Shown: piece after piece, positions 4,053 to 32,000 of the stretch
How positions within the stretch are numbered: the stretch's first letter is position 1
How the letters are laid out: each line of letters begins with the position of its first letter
DNA from: Nitrospirota bacterium
GTDB taxonomy: Bacteria > Nitrospirota > Thermodesulfovibrionia > Thermodesulfovibrionales > UBA6898
DNA: 32,000 bases
Direction of reading: 5' to 3'
NCBI GenBank assembly: GCA_021825365.1
Contig: JAKAHR010000002.1
Location: forward strand, 121,639 to 153,638
The notes under the pieces: generated by a model
Seen by the model: the letters and a program-made list of their open reading frames with translations, nothing else
Database searches by the model: none
What the model was told of the DNA's origin: nothing
Program-made: the position numbers and the translations under genes

Positions 4053-4216
4053 CTCGCGTTAAGACGTAACCCAGTATATCAAAAGGGCCTCTTGTCCTTC
4101 AAGAACAGCCCATGCCGTGATTGACAGGGAGACATATCCATAGTAGCCTTTTTTTACGGGGGCTTTCGCAGGAGCAAACAGCACAACAGGTTCATCTTCC
4201 CGCAGCAAAGGAGGCA

Positions 4217-6849: not shown

Positions 6850-6880
6850 CAGCGTCTGTTAAGGAGGAAGACGGGGAGGC

Positions 6881-8966: not shown

Positions 8967-9740
8967 CTAAGCCGACTGTTTCCCCTTTTTCTGTTCGTAC
9001 ATCAGCCTGTCTCCCTCCGCCAGAAGTTCATCGATAGGGCGGGGACTCAACGGGTTGTACGAGACGATGCCGAAGCTGGCGTCGATGCTGCATATACGGT
9101 CTTTTTCTGCATTGTGGATCTCGAGGTTCCTGTTAAAGCGGGAGGTGATTACTTCTATGGTATCACCTTCCGTGCCGACGGGGATCGCGACGAACTCATC
9201 TCCCCCGATCCTGGCTATGATGTCCGATTCCCGGAAGGTCTCGTTCAGCACGGCAGCCATTTCCATCAGGGCAGCGTCTCCCTCCTGATGGCCGTAGGTG
9301 TCATTGATCGTCTTGAGATTGTCCAGGTCAGCATAGAACATAAAGATCCTCTTATGGGACCTGTTGGCCAGCTTGAATTGTTGATCAGCAAGTGTAAAGA
9401 AACCGCGGCGGTTATGGAGACCGGTCAGCTCGTCCCGCAGGGATAGCACGTGAAGCCGCTCCTCTATCCTCTTCCTCTCGTCAATTTCGTTGAGCAGGGC
9501 CGCCTCAGTACGTTTCTGTCTGGCAAAGCTTCTTGACATGATCATGCCGGTGACAAGAAAGCAAAGAGACGCAAGGAGGCGAAATGACACTTCTCTCTTA
9601 TTGAAGAGAAGGATTGTCAGGAACGGTTCGTCATAGTGGGCGAGGTAATCGACGGTCGCATCAAGCACCCAAAAACAAAGAGCTGCGACAAGGGAAAGCA
9701 GCACTACGTTCCGCGGCTTATTGATCATGGCTCCATGCAC
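8967..9740 (-). CDS. Membrane-anchored diguanylate cyclase (GGDEF domain)
   Basis: 257 aa with two N-terminal hydrophobic helices and a coiled linker. RIGGDEFV active site with an RESD I-site five residues upstream; LTGLHNRRGF motif. Confidence 0.9.
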   Translation of the reverse strand: MHGAMINKPRNVVLLSLVAALCFWVLDATVDYLAHYDEPFLTILLFNKREVSFRLLASLCFLVTGMIMSRSFARQKRTEAALLNEIDERKRIEERLHVLSLRDELTGLHNRRGFFTLADQQFKLANRSHKRIFMFYADLDNLKTINDTYGHQEGDAALMEMAAVLNETFRESDIIARIGGDEFVAIPVGTEGDTIEVITSRFNRNLEIHNAEKDRICSIDASFGIVSYNPLSPRPIDELLAEGDRLMYEQKKGKQSA

Positions 9741-9865
9741 ATGAAGTTATCTGCAGCCGAAGTCTGCGCGCCCGGCAGCCCCGGCGGCTGCGGTATTAAA
9801 TCACAATCCGCCTGTTCTTGGCAATACATTTCTAAGAAAGGAAATCTCTGGTGAGATTGCAGATC

Positions 9866-16725: not shown

Positions 16726-18662
16726 AAAATGTAAACGCATTCATCCTTGCTTCCGGACGCGGAGAACGTCTCAGACCGATAACCGATCATTTGCCAAAAC
16801 CATTACTTCCCGTGCTGGGCAAGCCGGTCATCCAGAAAGTCCTAGAGAAACTCTCTGCCCTCGAAATTGCGTCAATAGGTGTAAATATCTGTTATCAAAG
16901 GGATTTTATGCAGAAATGGCTGACCTCTTCAGACTTCGCAGGAAAGATTATAATCTTTCCTGAGCCCGAAATCCTCGGCACAGGGGGGGCACTCAAGAAC
17001 GCCGAGACATTCTTGGGGCAGAACCATTTCATTACGCATAATGCAGATATCCTTTCAGACATCGACGTTCAGCTTCTGCTTGAGAGGCACCTGCATTCAG
17101 GCGATCTTGTCACCCTCGCTGTGCACCGTAAAGATGAATTTAACAATGTATGGGTTGATAAGAAGGGACGGCTTCTTCACATAGGAAAGGAGCCCCCCGG
17201 GAACAACAATGGTCACCGGTGTGTCGCCTTCACCGGCATAGCAGCCTATTCTCCTGAGTTCCTGAAGCTGATTCCCGCGGGCATATCGCATGTTCCGGAG
17301 ACTTGGATGAAGGCGGCATTCTCCCGGAGGGTCGGCACGATGGACTTTTCAGGCTGCAGTTGGAGGGATATCGGTACCCCCGCAGCATATGCCGAGGCGG
17401 TCTTTGAGGCTCTCTCGACAGATGGCGAGTCAGTCTATGTCCATCCGACCGCCCATTGCGGGGCAGCTATCCTTGGGGCAAAGACTGTGCTTGAGGAGAA
17501 GGTCGTCCTGACAGGCAACTGCTCACTGAGAAACAGCATTCTATTTGCAGGCGCCCTGATAGCTCCTGGCGCACACCTCGAAAATGCGATTATCGGCCCG
17601 GACTATGTATTGCCCCTTCAGGAGCGTCTCGCCCTCCCCCCGTCGCTGGCATCATCCGTTGTTTCTGACTTTATATCAGACGAAACCGCTACAACCAAAA
17701 TGACGCTGATCGGCTCTGGAGGGTCTGACCGAAAATACTTCAGAATTTCAGACGGCAGCAAGACAGCGGTGCTGATGCAGTGCCCGCCCTCTGACCCGGA
17801 CTATCAGAGACATATCATCTACACCCGCTTTTTCCGGAATAACTCGGTGCCGGTGCCCGAACTCCTCGCAGCAGAGGGCGACAGGGGGCTGAATCCGGCC
17901 TTTTCAAGCAGAGGACACTCGTATGCGCTATTCGAATACCTCGGAGATCTTTCCCTCTATTCCTGGCTGCAGTGCCGCAGAAAGACGGAGTTGGTGGAGA
18001 AGATGTACCAAAGGGTCCTCGATATCCTCGTCAGGATTCATACGGATGTCACAAGAAGCGTCGCTGATTGCCTGCTCCTGAAATCCAGGCTTTTTGATTA
18101 CGACCATCTCCGCTGGGAGACGGATTACTTCATCGACCGTTTTGTCCACGGCTTGAAGGGAATGACGCTAACGAACAGGAAGGCCCTTGTCCACGAATTT
18201 CATGAACTGGCCCTCCGGGTAGACTACTTCCCCAAGACAGTAATCCACAGGGACTTCCAGTCTCAAAATATCATGATCGCCGAGGGCGACACTCCCCGTA
18301 TCATCGACTACCAGGGCGCGCGCATGGGCCCGCCCGCCTATGATCTCGCCTCCCTCTTATGGGACCCCTATGTCGAGCTCGGCGGTCCCCTGCGCGAACG
18401 TCTTCTCGCCTACTATATCGACAAATTCGTGGCTTCCTCCCAGGCACTCGCAAGAGAGGACTTTCTGCGGACACTGCTGCCCTGCCGGCTCCAGAGACAT
18501 ATGCAGGCCCTCGGTGCCTACGGCTATCTATCCAGGGAAAAACAAAAGACATATTTTCTCAAGTATATCCCCCGCTGCCTCTCCTATCTGCGCAGCGAAA
18601 CGGACATGGTCAGCGGCGAATTTCCCGCGCTTCACAACCTCGTACAGGGCATCGGTGGATAA
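16722..18662 (+). CDS. Fusion protein: sugar-1-phosphate nucleotidyltransferase (MurU-like), hexapeptide-repeat segment and AmgK-like anomeric sugar kinase (APH fold)
   Basis: 646 aa. N-terminus: AFILASGRGERLRPITDHLPKPLLPV (NTP-transferase signature). Middle: left-handed beta-helix-like repeats. C-terminus: HRDFQSQNIMI (Brenner motif) and IIDYQGARMGPPAYDLASLL, close to the AmgK pattern. ATGA overlap with namZ. Confidence 0.75.
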   Translation: MKNVNAFILASGRGERLRPITDHLPKPLLPVLGKPVIQKVLEKLSALEIASIGVNICYQRDFMQKWLTSSDFAGKIIIFPEPEILGTGGALKNAETFLGQNHFITHNADILSDIDVQLLLERHLHSGDLVTLAVHRKDEFNNVWVDKKGRLLHIGKEPPGNNNGHRCVAFTGIAAYSPEFLKLIPAGISHVPETWMKAAFSRRVGTMDFSGCSWRDIGTPAAYAEAVFEALSTDGESVYVHPTAHCGAAILGAKTVLEEKVVLTGNCSLRNSILFAGALIAPGAHLENAIIGPDYVLPLQERLALPPSLASSVVSDFISDETATTKMTLIGSGGSDRKYFRISDGSKTAVLMQCPPSDPDYQRHIIYTRFFRNNSVPVPELLAAEGDRGLNPAFSSRGHSYALFEYLGDLSLYSWLQCRRKTELVEKMYQRVLDILVRIHTDVTRSVADCLLLKSRLFDYDHLRWETDYFIDRFVHGLKGMTLTNRKALVHEFHELALRVDYFPKTVIHRDFQSQNIMIAEGDTPRIIDYQGARMGPPAYDLASLLWDPYVELGGPLRERLLAYYIDKFVASSQALAREDFLRTLLPCRLQRHMQALGAYGYLSREKQKTYFLKYIPRCLSYLRSETDMVSGEFPALHNLVQGIGG

Positions 18663-19982: not shown

Positions 19983-20528
19983 CTAGAGCTCTGACACCTC
20001 GCGAAGCACCTGAGGGTTTCGCGTGAGGACCCGCCTGCACGCCTTACAAAACTCCTTTGACTTGTGGTCCGTGTCGCTGAGGTTGTATGAGAAGAACATG
20101 ACACACTGCCGCTGGCTGCAGTGCGAGAGCCCAAGAAGGTGTCCGACCTCATGGACCGCAGTCTTGACAGCCCTTCCGATAACCCCTCTGCCGGCCGGCT
20201 TTCTCTCATCACCCTGGCCGAAGCGGGCTATGGAGATAATGGCAGCCGGATATTCACGATCAGCAAGACCGAATACATAATTCAGTCCTGGATACGAGAG
20301 ATCGACATCTGTAATCGCAACTGTCAGCCCCGGCCCTTTCGCCAACGAGCGGAGACATTTCAGCAGATGCGCCGCAAAGTATTGCCTGCCCGGAGACTCT
20401 TTCGCGAATCCCTCAATAGAGGCGGTCGGCGCCACGGTAACAGGGAAACCCAAGAGCGAACCCGTCTCCTCCGCAACCGTTGAAACAATATCGATATCGA
20501 TGTTCCCAAGAGGCACTACCCGTATCAT
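19983..20528 (-). CDS. amzA: Archaemetzincin-like zinc metallopeptidase (peptidase M54)
   Basis: HEVGHLLGLSHCSQRQCVM....CKAC fits the archaemetzincin signature HExxHxxGxxxCxxxxCxM...CxxC. Start set at ATG 20528 (MIRVVPLGN, GGAG just upstream) rather than track position 20627. Confidence 0.75.
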   Translation of the reverse strand: MIRVVPLGNIDIDIVSTVAEETGSLLGFPVTVAPTASIEGFAKESPGRQYFAAHLLKCLRSLAKGPGLTVAITDVDLSYPGLNYVFGLADREYPAAIISIARFGQGDERKPAGRGVIGRAVKTAVHEVGHLLGLSHCSQRQCVMFFSYNLSDTDHKSKEFCKACRRVLTRNPQVLREVSEL

Positions 20529-20644
20529 CGTCTCCGGGACGTCTCGCCTCATCATCGCCGTACCTGTGCTCACGAAATATGGAGAGGCAAATCCCGTGCC
20601 TGCCAAAAGGGGCCTTCCTCCCCCCATAGCCGCCTGACGTTATT

Positions 20645-20772: not shown

Positions 20773-21897
20773 ATGTATCCGGAGATTGTTCTTACCCATC
20801 TTCTGTTTGGCATCGGACTCGGCGTTGTCATGCATCGGTCGGATTTCTGCATGGCCGGGGCATTCCGCGATATCTTCATCACCCGCGATTTTTTCCGGAT
20901 GAGGGCTGTCATCCTCCTGGTTTCCGTGACCTCCGTACTGCTATACCTGGCCCGCACTGCCGGCCTCGTGGACTCTTACCCGCCATCCTTCTATTCCTCC
21001 CCCTCGCTCGCCCATCTTGCGGGAGGCGTCATCTTCGGCATCGGCATGGTCCTTGCTGGCGGTTGTGTTATGGGAACCCTCTATAAAGCGGGAGCTGGAA
21101 ACCTTGTCAGTCTGTGCGCCTTTTCAGGACTCCTTCTCGGCAGCCTGCTCTTCGCCTGGGCATATCCGCTGCACCGCTCCTTTGTCGAGGCGACTACCCT
21201 GCCCGGCGGATTTACCGCCATGGAACACCTGACCGGAGCCCCGGGGCTGTCCGCATTACTTATCGTCTCGATATCCATCCTGTACCTCTTCAGGGGAAAA
21301 GAGCGTCCTGCCTGGACGAGTAATGCCTTTGCCAGGGGTTATCTCGACCCCTGGAAGGCGGCGCTTATCGTCTGCGCGATCATCATCCTATCCTTTACCC
21401 TGACCGGCCGCCCTCTCGCGCTTACGTCAGGGTACTCAAGACTTGCCTCGTGTCTTGCAGAAAGGTTGCTGCCCGAAGCCGTCACCCTTCCCTCCGCCAG
21501 AAGCGACTCTGTTCGTCTCCTCTATGGGATGGCCATGGACCCGGAGAGCCTGTCAGGGACTGACCCTGTGGTGCTCACGCAGGTACCCCTGATCTTCGGA
21601 ATTGTCATCGGCGCCTTTCTTTCCGCCCTGAGGCTGGGGGAGATCACCGCCCGCCCGGCGCCTCCCCGAAGGCAGCTCCTTTCCGGTTTCGCTGGCGGCA
21701 TCCTCCTCGCATGCGGTTCTCTGATGGCAGGCGGCTGCAATGTCTGGCATATCATGGGAGGACTGCCGCTTTTCGTATTTCAGAGCGTCCTCTTCGTCTG
21801 CGGCATGGGGTTCGGCGCATATGTCGGAAGCCGCCTGCTGCTCACAACGGTCCTTCAAGTTGAGAGGTGTGCCCCACATGGAAACCATAGCTATTGA
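20773..21897 (+). CDS. yeeE: YeeE/YedE-family sulfur-compound transporter
   Basis: 374 aa, polytopic. The Cys-containing motifs of the sulphur-transport domain are HRSDFCMAGAFRDIF, GMVLAGGCVMGTLYKAG and GSLMAGGCNVWHIMGG. Confidence 0.85.
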   Translation: MYPEIVLTHLLFGIGLGVVMHRSDFCMAGAFRDIFITRDFFRMRAVILLVSVTSVLLYLARTAGLVDSYPPSFYSSPSLAHLAGGVIFGIGMVLAGGCVMGTLYKAGAGNLVSLCAFSGLLLGSLLFAWAYPLHRSFVEATTLPGGFTAMEHLTGAPGLSALLIVSISILYLFRGKERPAWTSNAFARGYLDPWKAALIVCAIIILSFTLTGRPLALTSGYSRLASCLAERLLPEAVTLPSARSDSVRLLYGMAMDPESLSGTDPVVLTQVPLIFGIVIGAFLSALRLGEITARPAPPRRQLLSGFAGGILLACGSLMAGGCNVWHIMGGLPLFVFQSVLFVCGMGFGAYVGSRLLLTTVLQVERCAPHGNHSY

Positions 21898-22117
21898 TAT
21901 CAGGGGGCAGATCTGCCCCGCCTGTCTGCTGATTACTCTACGGGAAATCAACACCCACAAGACGGTCCTGAGGGACGGCAAGGCGCGCCTCGTCATAAAA
22001 ACCGATCACCGCGACGCCACAAGGACAATACCCTCCACGGTCTGCGCCATGGGGTACGATATCAATGTTACAGGCCGGAAGGGTTACTACGAGATCACGA
22101 TCGGGTACCGGAAATGA
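21878..22117 (+). CDS. tusA: TusA/SirA-family sulfur carrier (variant CPAC motif)
   Basis: 79 aa from ATG 21878 (METIAIDIRGQICPACLL...). This is the D.RG..CP motif of the TusA fold. It overlaps the yeeE end by 20 nt and the kinase start by ATGA. Confidence 0.75.
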   Translation: METIAIDIRGQICPACLLITLREINTHKTVLRDGKARLVIKTDHRDATRTIPSTVCAMGYDINVTGRKGYYEITIGYRK

Positions 22118-23403
22118 GAAAGATCGCTCCCCTCCGTATCAACAATATCGATGAACTCCAGAAGAGCAATGAGACGCTGAAGCGTTACATCCGGGAAAAG
22201 GTGAACCAGTTGCTCTCGATGATGGGCACGAGGCCGCTTGATCCCGCCGAGCTTGACGACAGTACGCTGCTTGACATCGATCCGATCGGCATCATAGCCG
22301 ACGCCTTCGGCCAGGTCCTCGAACACCTCGAGGAGACTAACAGGAAATTGATCAACACCAAGGATCAGTTGCAGGCCGTCTTCGAGACCGCAGGGGTCTG
22401 CATCTCGATCGTCGACCCTGACCTCAGGATCATCAGCTGCAATGAGAAGCAGCGGGAATTGCTCGTCTCCGATCTCAACGAGAAGGAATTTGTCGGCCGC
22501 TATTGCTACGAGGTCTATTGCGGTAACGATTCTCCGGCCCTCTACTGTCCGGCGATCGAGACGATCGAGACAGGGAAACCGGTCTTCATCAGGGAAATCA
22601 AGAAGAAAGGCAGGTATTTCCAGATCGTCACCTCCCCCCTGAAAAACCGCGACGGCACCCTCAAAGGCGTCGTCGAGGTCTCGATCGACGTGACGGAAAA
22701 GAAGAGGGCTGAAGAGGGCATGCGGCAGGCCGAAAAATTGTCAGCCATCGGCCTGCTCGGAGCCGGCGTTGCCCATGAGATCAATACACCCCTTGGTAAT
22801 ATCCTCGGCTATGCCAAAATGCTGCTAAAGGAGCAGGACCTCAGCGACCACCATAAGGAAAAATTGCAGGTCATCGTCGAACAGGCGAAAAAGGGCAGCG
22901 AGATCATCAGGGGACTTCTCAATTTTTCCCGTCAGTCAAAGCCTTCCCTTGCCACCATTTCGATGAACGATATGGTCAACAAAGTGCTCCTGGAGCTTTC
23001 GACCCAAATCGAGCGACAGGGGATAACCACCAGAAAAAACCTCCGGCCGATACCCCTCGTCGAGGCTGACCCCCTGCAGATAGAGCAGGTGCTCAGCAAT
23101 CTGGTGCTGAATGCGCTCCACGCCCTTGCCCGGACCCCGGAGGGGACCATCATCGTTGAGACACAGCGTACCGGCGCCTTTGTGGAGACGCGGATTGTCG
23201 ATAACGGCCCCGGCATATCCGACACCCTGCTCCCCCTGATATTCGATCCCTTCTTCACGACCAAGCCCGTGGGCGAAGGAGTCGGCCTCGGCCTTTCCAT
23301 CTGCTCGGGAATCATCAGGGACCATGGCGGCACCATACAGGCGGAGTCCGACCCCCGGGGAAAGACGGTCTTTTCTTTCCTCCTGCCCGTCAGATCCCCA
23401 TGA
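22114..23403 (+). CDS. Soluble PAS-domain sensor histidine kinase (NtrB/AtoS type)
   Basis: 429 aa with no hydrophobic TM segment. Coiled N-terminus and a PAS-like region carrying five Cys (including RYCYEVYCGNDSPALYCP). H box AHEINTPLGNILGY; ATPase G boxes DNGPGI and GVGLGLSI. Confidence 0.9.
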   Translation: MRKIAPLRINNIDELQKSNETLKRYIREKVNQLLSMMGTRPLDPAELDDSTLLDIDPIGIIADAFGQVLEHLEETNRKLINTKDQLQAVFETAGVCISIVDPDLRIISCNEKQRELLVSDLNEKEFVGRYCYEVYCGNDSPALYCPAIETIETGKPVFIREIKKKGRYFQIVTSPLKNRDGTLKGVVEVSIDVTEKKRAEEGMRQAEKLSAIGLLGAGVAHEINTPLGNILGYAKMLLKEQDLSDHHKEKLQVIVEQAKKGSEIIRGLLNFSRQSKPSLATISMNDMVNKVLLELSTQIERQGITTRKNLRPIPLVEADPLQIEQVLSNLVLNALHALARTPEGTIIVETQRTGAFVETRIVDNGPGISDTLLPLIFDPFFTTKPVGEGVGLGLSICSGIIRDHGGTIQAESDPRGKTVFSFLLPVRSP

Positions 23404-24779
23404 CAAAAATTGATCTTTCTCCTGAGGCGACTCCGCTGGCCCATCTGCTTATCGTCGAAGACGACTACCGCATGAGACTTCTCATGAAGCAGCTTCTCGA
23501 AAAAGAGGGGTATGCCACAACGGTCACGGAAGACGGCCGGGATGCCGTATCCCTGATCAAGGAGCGCTTCTTTGATATCGTCCTCACTGACCTCAAGATG
23601 CCCCATCTTGACGGCATGGAGGTACTCAGCGTCTCCCGGGAAGTCAATCCGGACACCCCCGTAATCGTCACGACCGGATATGCAACCGTGGACTCGGCGG
23701 TTGAGGCGATGAAGAAGGGCGCCTATGATTACGTGCAGAAGCCGTTCGATCCCGACGAACTCCTCCTCGTCGTGAAGCGCGCCCTCGACTACCGAAGGCT
23801 GATCGACGAGAATATCCGGCTGTCGGTAGCCCTTGAGAGTTGCTCTGGAGAAGAATTCGTGGGAATGAGCAACGGGGCTGTCAAGACGCGAAAATTCGCG
23901 GAGAGAGTCGCGCCGTTTGATTCAACGGTATTGATCCAGGGCGAGACCGGCTCGGGCAAGGAACTTGTCGCACGGCTGATCCATCGGCTCAGCAGAAGGG
24001 CGTCTCATAAATTTCTCGCGGTAAACTGTGCCGCCCTGACAGAATCCCTCCTGGAGGCTGAACTCTTTGGCTATGAGAAGGGCGCCTTTACCGGTGCGAC
24101 CCAGATGAAACGGGGGCTTTTTGAGGCCTCGGACGGCGGCACGCTGTTCCTCGACGAGATCAACAACTCCTCGGCATCGATGCAGATGAAACTCCTCCGA
24201 GTACTGCAGGACGGCCGGATCATCCGGGTGGGAGGGGTCGAACCGATAGACATCAATGTCCGTGTCATCGCAGCCTCGAATGCTGACCTGAAGTCCGAGA
24301 GCGAAGAAGGACGATTCAGGAAGGACCTCTTCTACCGCATCAATGTGGTCATGATCGATATCCCCCCCCTGAGAGGCCGCCGCGACGATATCCCTCTCCT
24401 GGCGACTCATTTCCTGGACAAGTACTCCCGCAAGTTCGCGAAGGAAATTAAGGGCTTCAGTCCGGAGGTGATGAAGATCCTCGCTGACTATCCCTGGCCC
24501 GGCAATGTCCGCGAACTCGAGAATGCGATCGAGCACGCGGTCATCATGGCGAAATCGCAAAAAAGCATATCAGCCGAATCTCTCCCTGAAGAGGTCAGAA
24601 AGAAGAAGCAGGGTGCTCTACCCCCTCCTTTCGCGGCCGTTCGTCTCGATGAGGTCGAAAAATCACTCATAGAGCAGGCGATGCTCACCTTCAACGGCCA
24701 GAAGGCGAAGGCTGCAGAGGCCCTCGGCATCAGCTCTTCGACCCTCTGGAGGAAACTGAAAAAATACCGGCTTGAATGA
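23400..24779 (+). CDS. Sigma-54-dependent response regulator (NtrC family bEBP)
   Basis: 459 aa. Receiver domain (LLIVEDD...VLTDLKMP). AAA+ domain with GETGSGKE, the GAFTGA sigma-54 contact loop and DEIN Walker B. C-terminal Fis-type HTH (AAEALGISSSTLWRKLKKY). Confidence 0.95.
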   Translation: MTKIDLSPEATPLAHLLIVEDDYRMRLLMKQLLEKEGYATTVTEDGRDAVSLIKERFFDIVLTDLKMPHLDGMEVLSVSREVNPDTPVIVTTGYATVDSAVEAMKKGAYDYVQKPFDPDELLLVVKRALDYRRLIDENIRLSVALESCSGEEFVGMSNGAVKTRKFAERVAPFDSTVLIQGETGSGKELVARLIHRLSRRASHKFLAVNCAALTESLLEAELFGYEKGAFTGATQMKRGLFEASDGGTLFLDEINNSSASMQMKLLRVLQDGRIIRVGGVEPIDINVRVIAASNADLKSESEEGRFRKDLFYRINVVMIDIPPLRGRRDDIPLLATHFLDKYSRKFAKEIKGFSPEVMKILADYPWPGNVRELENAIEHAVIMAKSQKSISAESLPEEVRKKKQGALPPPFAAVRLDEVEKSLIEQAMLTFNGQKAKAAEALGISSSTLWRKLKKYRLE

Positions 24780-24783
24780 TCGT

Positions 24784-24820
24784 GCATTTCAAAATGACAA
24801 ACCAACTCATTTTGAAATGC
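24784..24820. promoter_or_regulatory. Upstream activator sequence candidate: 14-bp perfect inverted repeat
   Basis: GCATTTCAAAATGA-N9-TCATTTTGAAATGC starts 5 nt after the regulator stop. It lies about 165-200 nt upstream of the sigma-54 promoter, the usual bEBP enhancer distance. It is AT-rich and has no trailing T-tract, so it is unlikely to be a terminator. Confidence 0.6.
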
Positions 24821-24984: not shown

Positions 24985-25000
24985 TGGCACCCATCTTGCT
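24985..25000 (+). promoter_or_regulatory. Sigma-54 (-24/-12) promoter
   Basis: TGGCAC-CCATC-TTGCT is an exact match to TGGCAC-N5-TTGCW. It lies 75 nt upstream of the first ATG of the downstream operon and directly downstream of a sigma-54 activator gene. Confidence 0.85.
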
Positions 25001-25074
25001 CAATTACGAAAAGAACCATGCCCATCGCCTCCCTCAGGCGGCGATGGGCGAACTACCAAAGAAAGGAGAAGACA

Positions 25075-25254
25075 ATGTCGATAGAAGGAAAAGGCGGACT
25101 TACCTTGCCCTGGCTCTGGGTGGCTGTCGTGATCGCCTATCTCGCCTTTGGCTTCATGCTGCCCCCCTTCGATAGCCACCTGAAGGAGCTGGCAAAGGCC
25201 AAAGCTGCACCCGCGGCCGATCAGAGCGGGAAGGGCGACGAAATTGTCTTTTGA
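25075..25254 (+). CDS. Small single-pass membrane protein (59 aa), unknown family
   Basis: ATG 25075 is preceded by AAAGGAG (25061-25067). MSIEGKGGLTLPWLWVAVVIAYLAFGFMLPPF is one TM helix, followed by a charged and Ala-rich tail. First gene after the sigma-54 promoter. Confidence 0.6.
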   Translation: MSIEGKGGLTLPWLWVAVVIAYLAFGFMLPPFDSHLKELAKAKAAPAADQSGKGDEIVF

Positions 25255-25258
25255 CCGC

Positions 25259-25780
25259 ATGGTCGAGCCCCCCGCAAGAAGGCCCAGCCCCAGGGAAAAA
25301 CATCACGGGACTGCCCGGGTTTCCCCGGCGATACACCTTGTGCTCGCAGCTTTCCTCATCTTCCTGTGTGAAGGAAACCCCTGCGGAGAGGCGTCGGAAA
25401 AGAAAGGGAGCATATCCCCCGGGGGCGAGGTGCGGGAAATCCGGTGGACCCCCACGAGCGAGGGATTATCGGTAGAACGCATTGTAGCGCGGAAGAAGGT
25501 GGTGGTCCCTATCGAGGTCTCGCTCAACGGAAACATCGCAGAAGTAATCTTTATCATTCCTTCAAAATTCAAGGCCTTCGGCATCTCCATGGAACCACAG
25601 GTGGCCGAAGTGAAGAACGGCAAGGCACAAGCAGGGGTTGCGTTTTATATCCTGGAGGGGATGCCGCTCGGCAGGCACAATCTCATCATCGAAATCCTCG
25701 ATGGCCTGACCCGGACCAGGATAGGAAGCGCCACCATCCCCTTTATCCTCCTGCCGTCTGATCTCGAATGTCTTTGCTGA
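25259..25780 (+). CDS. Secreted protein of unknown family, paralogue A, ends in ..LLPSDLECLC
   Basis: ATG 25259 lies 4 nt after the previous stop (the track uses TTG 25244). Basic N-region, then a hydrophobic helix AIHLVLAAFLIFL (signal or anchor). The C-terminal 67 aa align without gaps to the next gene product (23 identities counted by eye). Confidence 0.7.
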   Translation: MVEPPARRPSPREKHHGTARVSPAIHLVLAAFLIFLCEGNPCGEASEKKGSISPGGEVREIRWTPTSEGLSVERIVARKKVVVPIEVSLNGNIAEVIFIIPSKFKAFGISMEPQVAEVKNGKAQAGVAFYILEGMPLGRHNLIIEILDGLTRTRIGSATIPFILLPSDLECLC

Positions 25781-25824
25781 TTGGATCTGCTCTATAAAAA
25801 GGAGAAAGGAAGGTATATACAACC

Positions 25825-26304
25825 GTGAAGAAAATAGGAACTCTTATGGGAGCCGCTATCCTGGCTTCCTTTCTGCTCGCCGGCGTACCATTGATTACTA
25901 CTCATAACAGCAGCGACGGTGCGGTGAAGACCGCCGAGGCGGCTGAGGCACCCTCCACAGACTTCGCGTGGCACCCCAACAGACCGGGGATCAAGCGGGC
26001 GCAGATAGCCCTCGGCAGGGCCTCTACACTTCGCTTCGAGTTCTCCCTCAAGGGAAAAAACGGCACACAGGTGAAATTCGGCTTGCCGAAAAAATATGTG
26101 ACCATGGGCATCAGGATCGACCCCCATGAAGTCCCGGTCAGCGAGGGAAAGGCATCGTCCAAGGCGGTGCTCACCGTGCCACCCGGAATGCCCCTCGGAA
26201 AGTTCGATATCCCCGTGATCGCGGTAGACGCGAAAACAGGAACAGAGCTCGGCAGGGGCGAGATCCCGATCATGCTGCTGCCTGCCGGAGTGGGCGGGTG
26301 TTAA
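25825..26304 (+). CDS. Secreted protein of unknown family, paralogue B, ends in ..LLPAGVGGC (SoxY-like C-terminal Cys tail)
   Basis: GTG 25825 follows an AAAAGGAGAAAGGAAGG SD region. Sec-type signal MKKIGTLMGAAILASFLLAGVPL. It shares the motifs LPKKY, GI.I.P, GKA, GMPLG and IP.(I/M)LLP with paralogue A. Confidence 0.75.
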   Translation: MKKIGTLMGAAILASFLLAGVPLITTHNSSDGAVKTAEAAEAPSTDFAWHPNRPGIKRAQIALGRASTLRFEFSLKGKNGTQVKFGLPKKYVTMGIRIDPHEVPVSEGKASSKAVLTVPPGMPLGKFDIPVIAVDAKTGTELGRGEIPIMLLPAGVGGC

Positions 26305-26331
26305 CCGTGCAATCCAAGGAGGAAGAGCCGT

Positions 26332-27732
26332 ATGGATGACTACGGAGTGCGAGGCTGGTGGGATGCGTGGTACAGGAAATTCTTCAAAGAAAAATGGCCG
26401 CTCTCAATGGCGGCGGTATTCATGGCACTTTCCGGGATAATTGCCTACGGCGTCGCGGTATGGTCCCTGGCCAGGACGGTGGCGGGAAGTAACCCGTACG
26501 ATCAGGCCAAACCGCTCGGCACCTTCCTCGGATTGAAGGAACTCGGCGGTATCATCAACGGCCTTCTGGGCAAGATCGGGCTCCCTCATTACCCCTTTGC
26601 CGGATATACGTGGCCTGATGGCGTGACGATCAACTTCTTCCAGCAATATCCAAATCCCTTGCTCGAACCGACGGCCGGCACGATGCTCGGCATACTCTTC
26701 GGAGGCCTTATCGCCGCCCTCCTGGCGAAGGAGTTCGCCCTGAAGGTACCCTTCGACAGGACCGAGTACAGCCTGGCGGTCGTCGGAGGCATCCTGATGG
26801 GGGTAGGCGCGGTCTTTCAGTTCGGCTGCCCCGTGGTGAGCACCACCAACCTGGGGGCCATGGGCGTACAGGCGATCATCATGGTCATCGGCATGACGAT
26901 CGGCTCCTATTTCGGAGCAAAAATCATCGTCTGGCTCGAAAAAAGAAGGGTTGCGGCGATCGCCTGCGCAGCGGACGGGGCCGGCTACCGGCCGCTGATG
27001 CTTTTTGAAAAGACAAAGACAGTCTGGCCCCGCCTGCCTGACCGGGCCGACGGCGGCGAACCGGCCGGCCTCAGGTATCAGCCGTATCTGGCCGCCTTGC
27101 TTCTGGGGGCGATGGTGCTCATCCTCCTCCGTTTTGCGGGCCTGGGCTACCCTGCTCTTTCGCTCTCCTTTGCCGCAGCCACCCTCACCGGCTTTGCGAT
27201 GCAAAGGGGAGGGATCTGTTTCGCCTACGCATACCGCGAACCGTTTCTCTCGGGATTTTCAGATATGTCGCGGGCGATGGCATTGCTCTACATCCTGCTG
27301 GTGCTCGGCTTCCTGCCGATGAAGCTGCTGGCGACTGCGAATCCTGATCTTGCGTATGCGGAGATTTTCGCGATTAGCCCCGCCGGCATCGGCGTCCTGC
27401 TCGGTTCAATTCTCTTCGGCATCGGCATGGCGCTCAACGGAGCGTGTGTCAGTGACAGCCTCTGGAGGACTGCAGAAGGACAGGTAAAGATCTGGGTGGG
27501 GCTGCTCACCCTCATCTGCGTGTCGTCCTGGATCTTTCCGATGCGCGAGGAGGCATGGTTCAAGAGTATCTTCGCGCCCTATGGCTCGCAGAACATCCGC
27601 GACGTATACCTGCCGGAGATCCTGGGCGGATATCCTGCAGCAGTCGCCTTTGTCATCGGCGTGGTAATTTGCTGGGCCCTGCTGATGACATGGTTCAGCG
27701 GCAGGACTTTCAGAAAATACATGGAGGAATAG
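26332..27732 (+). CDS. Divergent, enlarged YeeE/YedE-like membrane protein
   Basis: 466 aa, polytopic. YeeE-type Cys motifs are recognisable but diverged: GVGAVFQFGCPVVSTTNLG, QRGGICFAYAYREPF, GIGMALNGACVSDSLWRTAEG. It has an extra N-terminal segment and a long hydrophilic loop between the two halves. Confidence 0.7.
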   Translation: MDDYGVRGWWDAWYRKFFKEKWPLSMAAVFMALSGIIAYGVAVWSLARTVAGSNPYDQAKPLGTFLGLKELGGIINGLLGKIGLPHYPFAGYTWPDGVTINFFQQYPNPLLEPTAGTMLGILFGGLIAALLAKEFALKVPFDRTEYSLAVVGGILMGVGAVFQFGCPVVSTTNLGAMGVQAIIMVIGMTIGSYFGAKIIVWLEKRRVAAIACAADGAGYRPLMLFEKTKTVWPRLPDRADGGEPAGLRYQPYLAALLLGAMVLILLRFAGLGYPALSLSFAAATLTGFAMQRGGICFAYAYREPFLSGFSDMSRAMALLYILLVLGFLPMKLLATANPDLAYAEIFAISPAGIGVLLGSILFGIGMALNGACVSDSLWRTAEGQVKIWVGLLTLICVSSWIFPMREEAWFKSIFAPYGSQNIRDVYLPEILGGYPAAVAFVIGVVICWALLMTWFSGRTFRKYMEE

Positions 27733-27816
27733 ACGGGACGCGGGCTGTTCAATCCGATGTCCCCTCACCGTAACGACCGCCGGGTTCCCGGGTCCGGCTA
27801 AACGAAAGGAGGAATA

Positions 27817-28053
27817 ATGGCAACGGAAAGCCATATCGACAGGGAGCTGGATGTGAAGGGGCTCGTCTGTCCAAGGCCAATGGTGATGAGCATGAGTGCG
27901 CTGAAAGCGATGTCACCGGGGCAGGTGTTGAAGATCACGGCGAATGACAGCAGCACGAAACATTCCATTCCGGCCTTGTGCGAACGGGCAGGGTACAAAC
28001 TCGTCGAGCAGACGGAGGAGATGGGAGCTTTCATCTTCATCATCCAGAAATAA
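27817..28053 (+). CDS. tusA: TusA/SirA-family sulfur carrier (canonical CPxP motif)
   Basis: 78 aa. LDVKGLVCPRPMVMSMSALK is the TusA active-site motif. SD AAAGGAGG upstream (27803-27810). Confidence 0.85.
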   Translation: MATESHIDRELDVKGLVCPRPMVMSMSALKAMSPGQVLKITANDSSTKHSIPALCERAGYKLVEQTEEMGAFIFIIQK

Positions 28054-28106
28054 CCCGAAAGCCTGCGGACTGCAGGCCACATTTCACAGACAGGCGGAGG
28101 TAATAT

Positions 28107-29411
28107 ATGCGAAAGAGGCTATTGGAAACAAATAGGGCAAGCCTGGTACTGCTGGCGATCGCCCTGTCACTGATCTCTTTTTCCCTGATTCTCCACGGAT
28201 GTGGAGGAGGCGGCTACGATGCCCCTGCCACAACCCAGACCGTGTCGGCCCTGGTCTCGCCCGAGACCCTCAAGGGCTGGATCGACAACGGGAGCGTAAA
28301 CGGCACGGGATACGACAAGGTCGTCATCCTCGACGTCAATTCCCAGGCAAACTACTCAGCCGGGCATATACCCGGCGCCCAGTTTCTCGATAGCGCGGAC
28401 ATTTATCAGACGAGAAACGAAGGCATCGCCGCTGACGTCAACATGGTCCTTGACGGCAGTCACATGGACGCATTGATCCACAAATACGGCATAGATCGCA
28501 ATACAACGATCGTTTTTACAAGCGGCAACAATGATCCCAAGACAACGCCGTCGTCCATGCTCTCTGCCACCAGGGCCTATTGGACCTTCCGGTACTGGGG
28601 CTTTCCCAAGGAGAGACTCAAGGTAGCCGACGGCATCAACCCCGCATGGTCCGCCGTGTTCGGACTGACTACCGCCCCCTCGCCGGCGATCATCCCCTCC
28701 ACGTACAGCGTAAAGAGCAACGGGCTTCTGCGGAGCGAAGTAAGGGCATCTCTGGCCGAGATGATCAGCCTCGTTGACAGCGGAACTCCCAACGCGCTGA
28801 TCATAGACGGCAGGGGATCAGGCGGCTCGTTTGCAGGCACCCCAGGGTCGACCGCAGGCGTCTTCCCCCCGACCGGAGATTTTGTCGCCTTTGAAGGAAG
28901 GATCAAAGGGGCAAAGGCATTGGGATATACAACGCTCTTTGATTCCGGCAACGGCAACCGCTTCCTCCCGCCGGACCAGCTCGCCGCGAAATTTGCCGCG
29001 ATCGGGCTCGACAGCTCCAAGACCGCCTATGTCCACTGCCGCACCGGCGTCATCGCCTCTGCCCTGTATTTTGCACTCGATGGAATCCTCAACTGGCCAG
29101 CGTCCAACTATGATGCATCCTGGAGCCAGTGGGGGCAGCTTGCAGGAGACCCAACTGACGGCAAACAGATTGACCCGAATTCCCCCTGGAGAACCGACAT
29201 CCCCTCCCGGTCGGAGCTCGTCGTCTACAATGGGGCAAACGGCAAGACCGTCGAGAAGCTCTGTCTGGACGGTTCCGCCGCCACCTGCGCCACGCCGGCG
29301 TCGTTCGATACGGATGCGAACAAGATCGAGGAAGAAGACGCCGCGTATATGAACAGCGGCGGCTCAGCCGGCGGTTCCGGAGGCGGAGGAGGAGGCAAGA
29401 CAGGATGCTAG
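28107..29411 (+). CDS. Tandem-rhodanese (thiosulfate/polysulfide sulfurtransferase-like) lipoprotein with Gly-rich C-terminal tail ending in Cys
   Basis: 434 aa. Signal peptide with lipobox LHG-C (Cys32). The first rhodanese domain lacks the catalytic Cys (VFTSGNND). The second has the active-site loop YVHCRTGVIAS (Cys311, nt 29037-29039). The tail is SGGSAGGSGGGGGGKTGC-stop. Confidence 0.8.
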   Translation: MRKRLLETNRASLVLLAIALSLISFSLILHGCGGGGYDAPATTQTVSALVSPETLKGWIDNGSVNGTGYDKVVILDVNSQANYSAGHIPGAQFLDSADIYQTRNEGIAADVNMVLDGSHMDALIHKYGIDRNTTIVFTSGNNDPKTTPSSMLSATRAYWTFRYWGFPKERLKVADGINPAWSAVFGLTTAPSPAIIPSTYSVKSNGLLRSEVRASLAEMISLVDSGTPNALIIDGRGSGGSFAGTPGSTAGVFPPTGDFVAFEGRIKGAKALGYTTLFDSGNGNRFLPPDQLAAKFAAIGLDSSKTAYVHCRTGVIASALYFALDGILNWPASNYDASWSQWGQLAGDPTDGKQIDPNSPWRTDIPSRSELVVYNGANGKTVEKLCLDGSAATCATPASFDTDANKIEEEDAAYMNSGGSAGGSGGGGGGKTGC

Positions 29412-29467
29412 GGAGCAATGATGCGGAAAGAGCAGAGAACCATTCCATCGTCAAGGAGGAGAATAGC

Positions 29468-30664
29468 ATGATGAGAATTCTAAAATGGGCGTTGCTCCTG
29501 ATGCTTCCGGTTGCCGTCTTCTGCATGGGAGAGCGGGACGCCCTCGCCTTTCAGCCTATCGTGTTTGGTGAAGAAGGGGCCTTTTTGAAAATCGATTATC
29601 AGGGCCAGCTTTACGGCGTGGTGCGTGACACAGGGTCCGGTCCGGACAAGACAGCGGATACGACTGACCTGTTCTTCAGAAGGAACCGTCTGACCTTCTG
29701 GGGACACGGCACCGACAAATACGGGTTTATCGTCCAGCTTGAATATACCGGGGAGAGGAGAGTCGACTCGCTCATCGTCAACGATCAGCCCGGCAAGGAC
29801 TTCAACGTCCTTGACGCCTATTTCATGGCGGACTTTTCGAACAGTTTCCGGGTCTATGCGGGAAAGCAGAAGATACAGCTGACGAGGGAAAACCTCGAAG
29901 ATTGTTTCGAGCCCCTCAGCGTCGACCGTTCCCTCTTCATCTATACGCCGTTCAAGCACAGCAGGGACACCGGACTGGTCGTCTGGGGAAACATCCCCGA
30001 GTTGCTGATGCAATACCGGCTGGCGGTCTCGAAAGGGAAAGATAATGGCGATGAGCCCAAGAGCTCCCTCATGTACACCGGCCGCGTACACGTCTCCCTC
30101 CTGGATCCGGAATACGCATACGGGTACAAGGGGACATATCTCGGGACCAAAAAGACGCTGACCGTGGGCGCAGGCGTTCAGTACGAGCCGGACGCGGTAT
30201 TCAGCGATATCGTCAACAAGACCGGGGGCAAGAACTACTCCGCCTGGACCGTTGATGCCTTTTTCGAATATCCGTTCAAGAATGCCGGTGCCATCACCCT
30301 GTCGGGGGCTTATCTGCAAACGAAATTCGACGAGGCCTTCAAGGGGAACAACCCTGATCCGGAGAGTCTCGGCATCGACGGAGACAAGAAAGGCTGGTAT
30401 CTGAAGGCAGGCTACCTCCTGCCCATGAAGATCGGGTGGGGGCAGGTCCAGCCCTTTGTCCGTTACGAGGACTGGAGTTTCGCCCAGCTGAACAATGTCT
30501 TTGACCAGAAGGTGAAGTGGTTCGGGGCAGGGCTCAACTATCTGATCAACGGACAGAGCCTCAGGATTACCCTCGAATACGCGAAGACGAATTTCGACAA
30601 GGAGCCGAATCCGCAGTCAAAGGATTTCAGCACGGTCACCGCGATGCTGCAGTATCGGTTCTGA
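29468..30664 (+). CDS. Outer-membrane beta-barrel porin, OprO/OprP-like (anion-selective porin family)
   Basis: Start at ATG 29468 (AAGGAGGAG SD). Signal MMRILKWALLLMLPVAVFC..ALA-F. FFRRNRLTFWG motif as in phosphate-selective porins. Alternating beta-strand pattern, with C-terminal ..MLQYRF (terminal Phe). Confidence 0.7.
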   Translation: MMRILKWALLLMLPVAVFCMGERDALAFQPIVFGEEGAFLKIDYQGQLYGVVRDTGSGPDKTADTTDLFFRRNRLTFWGHGTDKYGFIVQLEYTGERRVDSLIVNDQPGKDFNVLDAYFMADFSNSFRVYAGKQKIQLTRENLEDCFEPLSVDRSLFIYTPFKHSRDTGLVVWGNIPELLMQYRLAVSKGKDNGDEPKSSLMYTGRVHVSLLDPEYAYGYKGTYLGTKKTLTVGAGVQYEPDAVFSDIVNKTGGKNYSAWTVDAFFEYPFKNAGAITLSGAYLQTKFDEAFKGNNPDPESLGIDGDKKGWYLKAGYLLPMKIGWGQVQPFVRYEDWSFAQLNNVFDQKVKWFGAGLNYLINGQSLRITLEYAKTNFDKEPNPQSKDFSTVTAMLQYRF

Positions 30665-30695: not shown

Positions 30696-30741
30696 GGTCA
30701 TATGGAGGTAATCATCACCTCCATATGACCCTCTTTTTTTG
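30696..30741 (+). terminator. Rho-independent terminator of the sigma-54 operon
   Basis: GGTCATATGGAGGT-AATCATC-ACCTCCATATGACC is a perfect 14-bp stem followed by CTCTTTTTTTG. It starts 32 nt after the porin stop. Confidence 0.9.
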
Positions 30742-30876: not shown

Positions 30877-31266
30877 ATGGGAAACCATAGAGATGAAAGG
30901 GACAAGTCGTTTTATCCGGATTATCTGAGTGAAATCCTTGCAGCGATATTTCTAACGATCTTCACCGTTTTTATCCTCGCCATGGTATATGCGCCATCCA
31001 TTGACAGAGAGATCAACTATGTGTCTGCCTACCACCCGAAACCGGAATGGTACTTTCTCTGGATCTATCAGCTCATCAGGTATTTCCCGGGGGGTTGGGC
31101 CTTCGTCGGGACCGTGCTGATTCCGATTGTTGCAGCAGCTCTTTTCATCGGCATACCCTTTGTCGACCGCGGGACCGTGCGTTCCGGAAGGGCCGCCTCC
31201 TTTTTGTTTGCCCTGCTCTCCGTGTTCTTTCTCGTCCTGACCGTGGTGCCGCTTCTGTGGCCCTGA
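30877..31266 (+). CDS. Cytochrome b C-terminal-domain protein (b6f subunit IV / PetD-like)
   Basis: 129 aa with three TM helices and the KPEWYFLWIYQLIRYFPG motif (the PEWYFL signature of the cytochrome b C-terminal domain). Confidence 0.75.
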   Translation: MGNHRDERDKSFYPDYLSEILAAIFLTIFTVFILAMVYAPSIDREINYVSAYHPKPEWYFLWIYQLIRYFPGGWAFVGTVLIPIVAAALFIGIPFVDRGTVRSGRAASFLFALLSVFFLVLTVVPLLWP

Positions 31267-31283
31267 CAGACGACGTCTTTCCC

Positions 31284-31733
31284 ATGGACAGCAGAAGAGA
31301 TTTCCTGAGGCGTTTCGTGAAATCCGGCTTCGGACTGCTCGCCTTCCTCTTCGGAGCGACATTGCTCAGATTCCTCTATCCGTCACAGGTCCGTACGCGT
31401 CAGCTGCTCTACCATCCCCTGCTCAAGGAAGATGATATCCCGAGGCAGGGTGTCAGAAGGGTCCACCTGACATACGACAAAGGGGAGAAGACAATCACGA
31501 TGCGCCTTTTTCTCGTACATGCAGGGGCCGACATATTCGCGCTTTCCTCCTCCTGCACGCACCTCGGATGTCTGGTGGACTGGTCCCGCCACAAGGAACA
31601 GTTCGTCTGCCCCTGCCATGGCGGGAAATATGATATGCAGGGCAACGTCATGGCCGGTCCGCCTCCTCTCGCCCTTGCGCGGATGCCGTTGAAGATCGAA
31701 AACGGGGTAGTCTACATAGGGATTAAGGAGTAG
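31284..31733 (+). CDS. Rieske [2Fe-2S] subunit with Tat signal
   Basis: Start at ATG 31284 (MDSRRDFLRRFVKSGFGLLAF; the track ORF begins upstream at 31047). Cluster boxes CTHLGC and CPCHGG. Confidence 0.9.
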   Translation: MDSRRDFLRRFVKSGFGLLAFLFGATLLRFLYPSQVRTRQLLYHPLLKEDDIPRQGVRRVHLTYDKGEKTITMRLFLVHAGADIFALSSSCTHLGCLVDWSRHKEQFVCPCHGGKYDMQGNVMAGPPPLALARMPLKIENGVVYIGIKE

Positions 31734-31746
31734 ATTCATGGGAAGA

Positions 31747-32000
31747 CTATTCGACTGGGTCGACAGGCGTTTCAGCCTCAGCACGCCTCACAAGAACTTT
31801 CTGCAGAGGGGCATCCCCGCCCGACTGAGTTATCTCTATTGTCTCGGAGGCATAGCCTTCACCCTGGTTATTTTGCTTGTGCTCACCGGGATGATGCTGA
31901 GCATATACTATGTGCCCTCGGAGGCCGAGGCATTTCAGAGCGTGCTCAGGATAACCCGTGAAGTAAGGCTCGGCGCGCTCATCCGCGGGTTGCACAAGTG
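31747..32000 (+). CDS. Cytochrome b / b6 N-terminal domain protein (partial, runs off the right edge)
   Basis: Absent from the track because no stop lies in the window. ATG 31747 follows AAGGAG. MGRLFDWVDRRFSL...LSYLYCLGGIAFTLVILLVLTGMMLSIYYVPS....RGLHK is a typical cytochrome b N-terminus. Confidence 0.85.

Follow-up and report, generated by a model that had tools for sequence, protein, structure and literature searches.

An acknowledged gap in the understanding of sulfur respiration, sulfur oxidation and sulfur disproportionation concerns the way in which insoluble elemental sulfur (S0) and polysulfide pass through the outer membrane to enzymes of the periplasm or cytoplasm. The question is raised by a 32,000-nucleotide stretch of DNA from a Nitrospirota bacterium (contig JAKAHR010000002.1, positions 121,639 to 153,638), referred to here as the window, in which seven co-oriented genes (g1 to g7) form an operon at 25075-30664 on the + strand. 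The locus offers candidates for every step of such a passage: a cysteine-tipped arm on an ExtH-family rhodanese lipoprotein, two new cysteine-ended periplasmic proteins, a long YeeE and a TusA.

Here, we describe this operon, its relatives and its regulatory unit, and consider what it may do. All of the evidence is computational, and the related loci (given L numbers) come from metagenome-assembled genomes (MAGs) and metagenomes. The operon may encode an inducible, envelope-spanning relay in which sulfane sulfur would be passed covalently, as cysteine persulfides, from the outside to cytoplasmic TusA – a reading that we hold with evenly balanced confidence.

Gene products of the operon

The original prediction for this DNA described seven same-strand genes with gaps of no more than 84 nt, an exact sigma-54 promoter and a strong terminator, and the open reading frame (ORF) coordinates and flanking signals agree with it on all three points. 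The -24/-12 promoter (TGGCACccatcTTGC; 24985-24999, + strand) is the only match in the 32-kb window to the consensus TGGCAC-N5-TTGC, compared with 0.08 expected by chance, and it is kept in 10 related loci. The operon is closed by an intrinsic terminator (30696-30741, + strand) with a 14-bp stem that includes seven G-C pairs, spans 30696-30730 and is followed by a T-run. Two start sites call for comment. The likely start of g2 is the ATG at 25259, five bases past the g1 stop and in agreement with the public gene call (the mechanical ORF begins at TTG 25244), and g7 could begin at 29405 or 29468, the latter being likelier with its good ribosome-binding site and signal peptide (MMRILKW).

The outer-membrane part of the system is encoded by g6 (28107-29411) and, directly after it, g7 (29468-30664). 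The lipoprotein rhodanese and porin that had been proposed for these genes are borne out by two rhodanese stretches, a lipobox and a Porin_O_P domain, but the products belong to the curated ExtH and ExtI families rather than being a generic rhodanese and OprO/P porin. The tandem-rhodanese lipoprotein g6 passes the NCBIfam ExtH model NF040901 (317.2 bits against a cutoff of 200, residues 13-414), and has a lipobox ILHGC (C32), an active-site CRTG at C311 and a 19-residue Gly/Ser arm ending in Cys434, all three of these cysteines being conserved. The last 15 residues are disordered in the AlphaFold2 model (confidence score pLDDT ~31), and by arithmetic only, an arm of ~19 residues would reach ~60 Å when extended, which exceeds the height of a porin barrel. 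A Gly/Ser-rich stretch with a terminal cysteine also ends 84 of 120 ExtH homologues. The outer-membrane porin g7 passes the ExtI model NF040900 (483.1 bits against 150), matches Porin_O_P (PF07396, E 4.7e-16), and has a signal peptide and a terminal Phe (...LQYRF). Signal peptides and localisation, here and below, were judged by eye from sequence.

Two further exported proteins, g2 (25259-25780, ending ...LLPSDLECLC) and g3 (25825-26304, ending ...MLLPAGVGGC), are paralogues (31% identity, E 2e-17) with N-terminal hydrophobic signal-like segments. They had been described as of unknown family, and this stands: neither has a family match in Pfam (at E <= 0.1) or NCBIfam, and no hidden Markov model places them in a characterised family. 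The sole cysteine of g3 is its last residue, Cys159, and is carried on a flexible tail that follows a beta-sandwich domain modelled with pLDDT >90. The ...MLLPAGVGGC tail is invariant in 64 of 64 g3 homologues, so that the proposed check on conservation of the terminal cysteine came out positive, as it did nearly universally in the wider family. The g2 cysteines Cys171 and Cys173 lie in a conserved EC[LM]C motif near the C-terminus. A profile search of 1.84 billion cluster representatives recovered only 57 relatives of the g2/g3 family, about 40 of which are small secreted proteins that are nearly all cysteine-ended (GVGGC, EC[LM]C, xAVGC, GAGGC or CSC); the other matches are Big_1-type immunoglobulin (Ig)-like repeats within giant surface proteins. 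Among the other genes of the window, one of 26 encodes a cysteine-ended product. Judged by sequence and model, g2 and g3 are a rare, unnamed family of predicted Ig-like exported proteins.

Several better known families were considered for g2 and g3 and rejected. SoxY and SoxZ fail on sequence and fold alike: the profile reaches no SoxY/SoxZ chain of the PDB at E <= 10, there is no Pfam or NCBIfam match, and the top 50 Foldseek matches of g3 in the PDB are generic Ig/PapD-like folds with SoxY and SoxZ absent. The likeness to SoxY drawn in the original prediction is thus an analogy only. The ExtJ family gives hmmsearch scores of ~0. The 'conserved hypotheticals' of the yedE-tusA-dsrEFH type II (YTD) cluster are DsrF and DsrH type II (PMC13293266, PMC13490349), and g2 and g3 are not these, since in L008, L029 and L027 the small genes that correspond to DsrF and DsrH are separate ORFs. 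The neighbours of fold relatives ending ...CSC, ...DITHC or ...PAVGC include no sulfur-trafficking genes, which limits the sulfur link to the GVGGC, xAVGC, GAGGC and ECxC branches rather than the whole fold family. The cysteine-ended fold may serve other uses in the CSC-ended relatives.

A terminal cysteine also marks a third family associated with ExtH and ExtI. In Geobacter sulfurreducens, extH, extI and extJ head the extHIJKLMNOPQS cluster (PMC5877670), where ExtJ is known from the literature only as a small protein without an assigned function. The Geobacteraceae ext cluster L030 has two ExtH copies that both end GGGC, and its two ExtJ proteins (L030:11710-12027 and 18258-18575; identity confirmed by the NCBIfam model) have a signal peptide and end ...QGC. 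The 21 ExtJ relatives from metagenomes (L031-L051) all end [Q/A]GC, giving a GC end in 23 of 23. Three unrelated families of ExtHI-type systems – ExtH, ExtJ and g3 – therefore carry a cysteine at the extreme C-terminus.

The inner-membrane and cytoplasmic components are g4 (26332-27732), a long (466-residue) YeeE/YedE-family sulfur transporter, and g5 (27817-28053), a TusA-family sulfur carrier; both assignments had been made before and are supported by Pfam (Sulf_transp PF04143, E 4e-34; TusA PF01206, E 3e-21, 75.3 bits against a cutoff of 28.6). The g5 protein has Cys18 in a CPRP motif, and neither a signal peptide nor a hydrophobic segment was found in it. Although g4 aligns weakly to Spirochaeta thermophila YeeE (6leo), it retains all three relay cysteines, with C296, C372 and C166 aligned to C22, C91 and C293 of that structure. 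Its best NCBIfam match is YedE/FdhT (91.6 bits against 350), and it falls under both TsuA equivalog cutoffs (77.3 bits against 400, and 54.7 against 645). Similarly, g5 is under the cutoffs for Escherichia coli TusA (60.9 bits against 78), YedF, its second-best match (47.5 against 79), and TsuB (22.7 against 147.5). These wide shortfalls led us to reject g4 and g5 as orthologues of the thiosulfate uptake proteins TsuAB.

The first gene, g1 (25075-25254), encodes a 59-residue single-pass membrane protein with one hydrophobic segment (residues 7-34) and no family match in Pfam or NCBIfam. It is found in 11 syntenic loci with the ending ...[DE][IL]VF (one has an extra Q after the F), and a g1-like protein in L029 has a different end. 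In each case g1 precedes g2/g3.

Conservation of the operon and the UGA-type ExtH genes

Synteny was examined by scanning one genome per species, which gave 15 loci with a g3 relative, and by tblastn with all proteins of the window. The order YeeE-TusA-PAS kinase-sigma-54 activator-(promoter)-g1-g2-g3-YeeE-TusA-ExtH-ExtI is conserved in about 13 of the 15 loci at 46-80% protein identity, and also in the metagenome contig L025. These loci belong to Nitrospirota and 'Deltaproteobacteria' MAGs, and the closest are labelled Nitrospirae/Thermodesulfovibrionales, some of them Candidatus Sulfobium. More distant arrangements are simpler or differently composed: L020, from an unrelated genome, is a minimal module of rhodanese, g3-like protein, YeeE and TusA; L029 has the order kinase-activator-rhodanese-peptidase-three small genes-g1-like-g3-like-YeeE-TusA and is without a porin; and L027 is a large sulfur-trafficking locus, also without a porin. 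The g3 gene always adjoins a YeeE gene, and the arrangements of L020, L029 and L027 tie g3 to YeeE/TusA. The association of the paralogues with YeeE, TusA and rhodanese on which the original prediction depended is in all kept in about 17 loci, including the minimal module.

The distribution of g2 differs from that of g3. Of 13 loci with ExtHI, 12 have g2, and the four loci without ExtHI all lack it (Fisher p ~0.002, with the loci mutually related). This co-occurrence suggests a division of labour between ExtHI and YeeE, in which g2 and g3 are proposed as putative carriers on the ExtHI side and the YeeE side, respectively. Those tests of the relay that were set beforehand and could be run in silico – synteny of the paralogues with sulfur-trafficking genes, conservation of terminal cysteines in homologues and placement of the paralogues by profile – all favoured it.

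The active site of ExtH varies among the relatives. In the window, the active-site cysteine lies in YVH-C-RTG and is encoded by a cysteine codon, whereas in four relatives the codon is an in-frame TGA (L004:11448; L008:14922; L025:10934, codon 312 of a gene starting at 10001; and L026:1953, codon 312 of a gene starting at 1020). In L004, L008 and L025 the frame runs ~120-140 residues past the TGA to the same Gly-rich ...GC end, and in L026 it continues until it runs off the contig. Moreover, 16 of 120 public gene calls for ExtH homologues are truncated exactly at the TGA site. An in-frame TGA, a conserved downstream frame and truncated gene calls together form a classical selenocysteine (Sec)/cysteine signature, and the UGA-type ExtH orthologues – not the copy in the window – probably are selenocysteine rhodaneses. 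Small hairpins lie downstream of the UGA, with folding energies no better than those of shuffled sequences (z +0.5 and -0.5) and hence no significance as selenocysteine insertion elements.

Regulatory unit and neighbouring genes

Four genes upstream of the operon, all on the + strand, form its regulatory unit. The first two, a second YeeE-family membrane protein (374 residues; 20773-21897; Sulf_transp E 1.5e-47) and a TusA-like protein with a CPAC motif (21878-22117; TusA E 1e-9), were overlooked in the earlier account; the pair is joined to the two-component system that follows. The YeeE gene is kept upstream of the kinase in 12 loci, as is the TusA-like gene, which overlaps the start of the kinase gene and is called in L016 and L017. 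The kinase (22114-23403) is a soluble histidine kinase with PAS, HisKA and HATPase_c domains and without a hydrophobic segment; its PAS domain has five cysteines (C96, C109, C131, C136 and C145) that do not vary among 13 orthologues. The kinase is a candidate sensor of sulfane sulfur or redox state, to which imported sulfur might plausibly signal by modifying cysteines. The fourth gene (23400-24779) encodes an NtrC-type sigma-54 enhancer-binding response regulator (Response_reg, Sigma54_activat at E 1e-65, and HTH_8).

Between this regulator and the promoter is a probable enhancer, or upstream activating sequence (UAS), at 24784-24820: a perfect 14-nt palindrome, GCATTTCAAAATGA-N9-TCATTTTGAAATGC. 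Seven other loci have the palindrome at a distance of 70-170 nt upstream of the -24/-12 element and two more have a degenerate version, within spacers that are otherwise diverged, and it is likely to be the binding site of the adjoining NtrC-type activator. The features of a sigma-54 regulon are thus all present, namely the GG-N10-GC promoter, an adjoining gene for an enhancer-binding protein and an upstream enhancer. A 13-bp hairpin (GCCCATCGCCTCC/GGCGGCGATGGGC; 25020-25049, + strand) lies in the 5' leader between the promoter and g1; an Rfam scan matched no family to it, nor to anything else in the operon.

Downstream of the terminator is a bc-type module (30877-32000, + strand), also missed in the earlier account, made up of a subunit-IV-like protein, a Rieske protein and an ExtP-like cytochrome b whose gene runs past the window end. 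The module continues in L017 (15619-19101), with a 655-residue multihaem cytochrome (~10 haems) lying beyond the window. The best NCBIfam match of the cytochrome b is ExtP at 239.8 bits, under the cutoff of 290, and the 655-residue cytochrome matches ExtN weakly (17.5 bits). The bc module or the cytochrome recurs close to the locus in L002, L007, L009, L010, L011, L013 and L027, and in L002 it stands directly after TusA.

Several related loci also contain triplets of small genes (~100, 90 and 57 residues) for which Pfam and NCBIfam give no match and whose size, order and sequence pattern fit DsrEFH type II (L008:11497-12262; L029:4464-5239; L027:1203-1998 and 9190-9969). Such genes are within the operon in L002, L008 and L029, beside YeeE/TusA in the L027 locus, and just upstream in L005, L007, L009, L011, L013 and L015. 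The remark in the original prediction that the cluster lacks DsrE is therefore true of the window and not of its orthologues, and, given these genes at orthologous loci, the system is better seen as an elaborated YTD cluster than as a separate one. Homologues of ExtJ and ExtKL were found neither in the window nor within 10 kb on either side, whereas the control locus L030 has both, and an MccSep homologue was found in none of the loci examined except L030. None of selD, selA, selB and ybbB was found in the window.

Other genes of the window bear less directly on the operon. An archaemetzincin-type zinc peptidase (Peptidase_M54) is encoded at 19983-20627 on the - strand (PF07998 E 1e-19; NF033823 145.7 bits against 145); its homologues occur in 13 related loci, mostly as the first gene between the sigma-54 promoter and g1 (e.g. 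L008:8781-9377), and the peptidase might, as an idea, trim the C-terminal extension that g2 has in some loci. A cluster for a molybdenum hydroxylase exported by twin-arginine translocation (4121-8225; 2Fe-2S subunit, molybdenum-cofactor-binding subunit, XdhC and MobA-like transferase) is apparently unrelated, and genes elsewhere in the window for ThiF, RtcA, tRNA-Phe, ParAB and NamZ look like housekeeping context.

The proposed relay, its rivals and known systems

From these data we infer a substrate, a direction of flow, an order of transfers, carriage as persulfide and a sensing mechanism. At the outer membrane, the ExtI porin and ExtH would take sulfur from polysulfide, S0 or thiosulfate and bind it at Cys311 of ExtH, a catalytic residue that would be selenocysteine in some relatives. 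The resulting persulfide would pass to the cysteine at the tip of ExtH's own flexible Gly-rich arm, then to the periplasmic Ig-like carriers, g2 followed by g3, and from g3 into the three-cysteine channel of the long YeeE. YeeE would deliver the sulfur to cytoplasmic TusA, which in related genomes would feed DsrEFH type II and DsrC. Expression would be switched on by the Cys-rich PAS kinase and the NtrC-type activator acting through the palindrome and the sigma-54 promoter, with the sensor probably receiving its input by way of the second YeeE-TusA pair, whose genes are co-transcribed with that of the kinase.

The case for this relay draws on several kinds of evidence. ExtH and ExtI score above curated cutoffs, and the gene order is conserved in about 14 loci, with a minimal module in an unrelated genome. 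Cysteines are kept where the relay would use them: as the sole and invariant terminal residue of g3, at the tips of most ExtH arms, at the GC end of every ExtJ examined and in the YeeE channel, and cysteine alternates with probable selenocysteine at the rhodanese site. The co-occurrence of g2 with ExtHI and the conservation of the enhancer, the promoter and the PAS cysteines also point in this direction. In Geobacter, extHIJ precede extKL, which encode MccSep, and localisation of ExtH to the outer membrane needs ExtI, according to Jahan 2019 as cited in PMC8981825, where loss of ExtI is said to impair selenite and tellurite reduction and to displace ExtH from that membrane. At least 10 related loci have DsrEFH-type-II-like genes inside the operon or next to it, and transfer from TusA through DsrEFH type II to DsrC occurs in vitro (PMC13293266). 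A similar co-localisation of genes is described in Desulfurivibrio dismutans (PMC12142623).

A number of points weigh against the relay. The operon is supported by computation only, through loci that are all MAGs or metagenomes and are not phylogenetically independent, so that the counts overstate independence; the localisations derive from signal peptides read by eye. The published ExtI and ExtH phenotypes concern selenite and tellurite only. The three C-terminal cysteines noted originally, on g2, g3 and ExtH, are all present in the window, but the EC[LM]C motif of g2 is non-terminal in six orthologous loci, where ~20 further residues follow it. Distant fold relatives ending [KNRG]CSC lie in non-sulfur neighbourhoods (P0092-P0123; e.g. 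L018:880-1341 and L023:2269-2721), and a terminal cysteine in this fold alone is thus no proof of sulfur carriage. Finally, no dsrEFH, dsrC, psr or mccSep gene was found in the window by tblastn, as the original prediction had said of Dsr and Psr.

The adjoining electron-transfer genes suggest another outlet for the sulfur. ExtHI and the carriers could feed periplasmic redox reactions – a bc complex or multihaem cytochrome in polysulfide reduction or oxidation, much as ExtJ may serve MccSep – or could export sulfur to the cell surface, leaving YeeE/TusA as a side branch or sensor. The ExtP-like cytochrome b, Rieske protein and 655-residue cytochrome beside the operon, and their recurrence in seven loci (directly after TusA in L002), fit this account, as do the position of extHIJ ahead of the periplasmic polysulfide reductase gene in Geobacter and the two loci, L004 and L010, that are without the operon's YeeE-TusA pair yet keep g2, g3 and ExtHI. 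A strong terminator nevertheless separates the operon from the bc module, g3-like genes remain tied to YeeE-TusA even without nearby cytochromes or a porin (L020, L029), and MccSep is seen in no locus examined other than the Geobacteraceae one; we consider such an outlet unlikely.

Two further accounts would change the cargo or the chemistry. The chalcogen could be selenium: selenite would enter through ExtI, be held as perselenide or selenotrisulfide on ExtH and the carriers, and cross a YedE-like channel to reach a YedF/TusA-like protein, either for detoxification or for making selenoproteins. NCBIfam does title ExtH and ExtI as proteins of a 'selenite/tellurite reduction operon', loss of ExtI in Geobacter impairs selenite uptake and reduction (PMC5877670, PMC8981825), and related organisms use selenocysteine, probably even within ExtH. 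The best match of g4 to YedE/FdhT and the second-best of g5 to YedF would fit as well, except that both are far under cutoff. The window gave no selD, selA, selB or ybbB, the role assigned to the Geobacter cluster is now S0 respiration with selenite reduction a side activity (PMC13510729), and the DsrEFH-type-II-like genes and bc/multihaem context of related loci fit energy metabolism better than the supply of a trace element, which leaves selenium handling quite improbable. Alternatively, the operon could mediate plain anion import, for instance of thiosulfate through the porin and YeeE in the manner of TsuAB, with the terminal cysteines used for structure or regulation only, for example to tether g2/g3 to ExtH by disulfides, to gate by redox state or to bind metal. 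Rhodaneses can use free thiosulfate, and CSC-ended fold relatives do exist outside sulfur loci. YeeE and YeeD (TsuAB) import thiosulfate without periplasmic carriers (PDB 6leo, 8j4c); the scores of g4 (77 bits against 400 for TsuA) and g5 (22.7 against 147.5 for TsuB) are remote from that pair, however, a single invariant cysteine on a flexible tail in ExtH, ExtJ and g3 is hard to explain structurally, and the probable exchange of cysteine for selenocysteine at the rhodanese site indicates demanding chalcogen chemistry. Anion import of this kind appears equally improbable.

Beyond the covalent relay to TusA, which we prefer, a broader generalisation can be put forward tentatively, and we rate it as rather doubtful: ExtHI with small cysteine-ended secreted proteins (g2/g3 here, the unrelated ExtJ in Geobacter) could represent an unrecognised class of covalent 'bucket-brigade' transporter. 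The ~20-residue arm of ExtH, as a surface lipoprotein, would reach through or alongside the porin and pass sulfane sulfur from insoluble S0 or polysulfide to the periplasmic carriers, which would deliver it to YeeE/TusA for cytoplasmic oxidation or disproportionation, or to MccSep for respiration. If true, this would explain the passage of elemental sulfur across the envelope of Gram-negative cells. As a GC-ended secreted protein also stands beside ExtHI in the tractable Geobacter, the hypothesis is testable now. Further leads are the probable selenocysteine rhodanese, a candidate two-component/sigma-54 circuit for sensing sulfur, for which the DNA site is defined, and a functional hint for ExtJ and the unnamed g2/g3 family.

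Among known systems, the ext cluster of G. sulfurreducens is the closest to the outer-membrane half of the operon. In both, the ExtI gene directly follows that of ExtH, the tandem-rhodanese lipoprotein ExtH has a Gly-rich, cysteine-ended tail, and a small secreted ...GC-ended protein accompanies the pair; near the operon is also the bc module with a cytochrome b that is ExtP-like but under the ExtP cutoff. The ExtKL proteins of that cluster constitute MccSep, a selenocysteine-containing pentahaem polysulfide reductase essential for S0 respiration, whose authors, in 2026, regard the route of polysulfide across the outer membrane as unknown (PMC13510729). Unlike the Geobacter cluster, the operon described here is without ExtKL, ExtM/N and ExtS, has carriers that are not homologous to ExtJ, is under a two-component system and sigma-54 rather than LysR, and is coupled to YeeE-TusA, which points to cytoplasmic import.

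The inner half resembles both the YTD cluster and TsuA/TsuB. With the YTD cluster it shares a long YeeE beside TusA, the same host phylum and, in orthologous loci, the three small DsrEFH-type-II-like genes. In that system, DsrEFH type II takes sulfur from TusA and gives it to DsrC in vitro, YeeE is proposed to translocate sulfane sulfur, and substrate specificity must reside in the uptake system, according to the same 2026 paper (PMC13293266). The operon differs in that dsrEFH is absent from the window, its g2 and g3 do not correspond to the conserved hypotheticals of YTD, and it adds g1, g2, g3, ExtH, ExtI, an archaemetzincin and a dedicated regulator. With TsuA/TsuB it shares the transporter family, the three relay cysteines and an adjoining TusA-like partner; unlike them, its proteins score far under the equivalog cutoffs, g4 is ~120 residues longer, and periplasmic cysteine-tipped carriers and an outer-membrane module are added.

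The likeness to SoxY is one of concept, and g3 is not a member of that family. SoxY, to which the intermediates of its pathway are covalently bound at a cysteine of the C-terminal peptide (PMC5336275), is a small exported beta-sandwich with its cysteine on a flexible Gly-rich C-terminal peptide, as is predicted for g3, and g2 beside g3 recalls the pairing of SoxY with its paralogous partner SoxZ. The tail here is GVGGC-COOH and that of SoxY GGCGG, sox genes (soxAXB included) were not found in the window, as the original prediction had said, and neither the Pfam SoxY model nor a SoxY/SoxZ chain is matched.

The operon is therefore best viewed as an import module of YTD type that new carriers join to an ExtHI module. 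The general idea of import by a porin, sulfurtransferases and YeeE has already been floated for D. dismutans, in which a porin, lipoprotein sulfurtransferases and YeeE are co-localised (RS05145-RS05170) and polysulfide import across both membranes was suggested from genomics (PMC12142623); compared by description only, that report covers the same three kinds of gene and names no small cysteine-terminal carriers, terminal-cysteine arm, selenocysteine variant or regulator. What appears to be new is the g2/g3 family, g1, the terminal cysteine shared by ExtH, ExtJ and g3, the putative selenocysteine form of ExtH, and the regulatory circuit with its DNA site.

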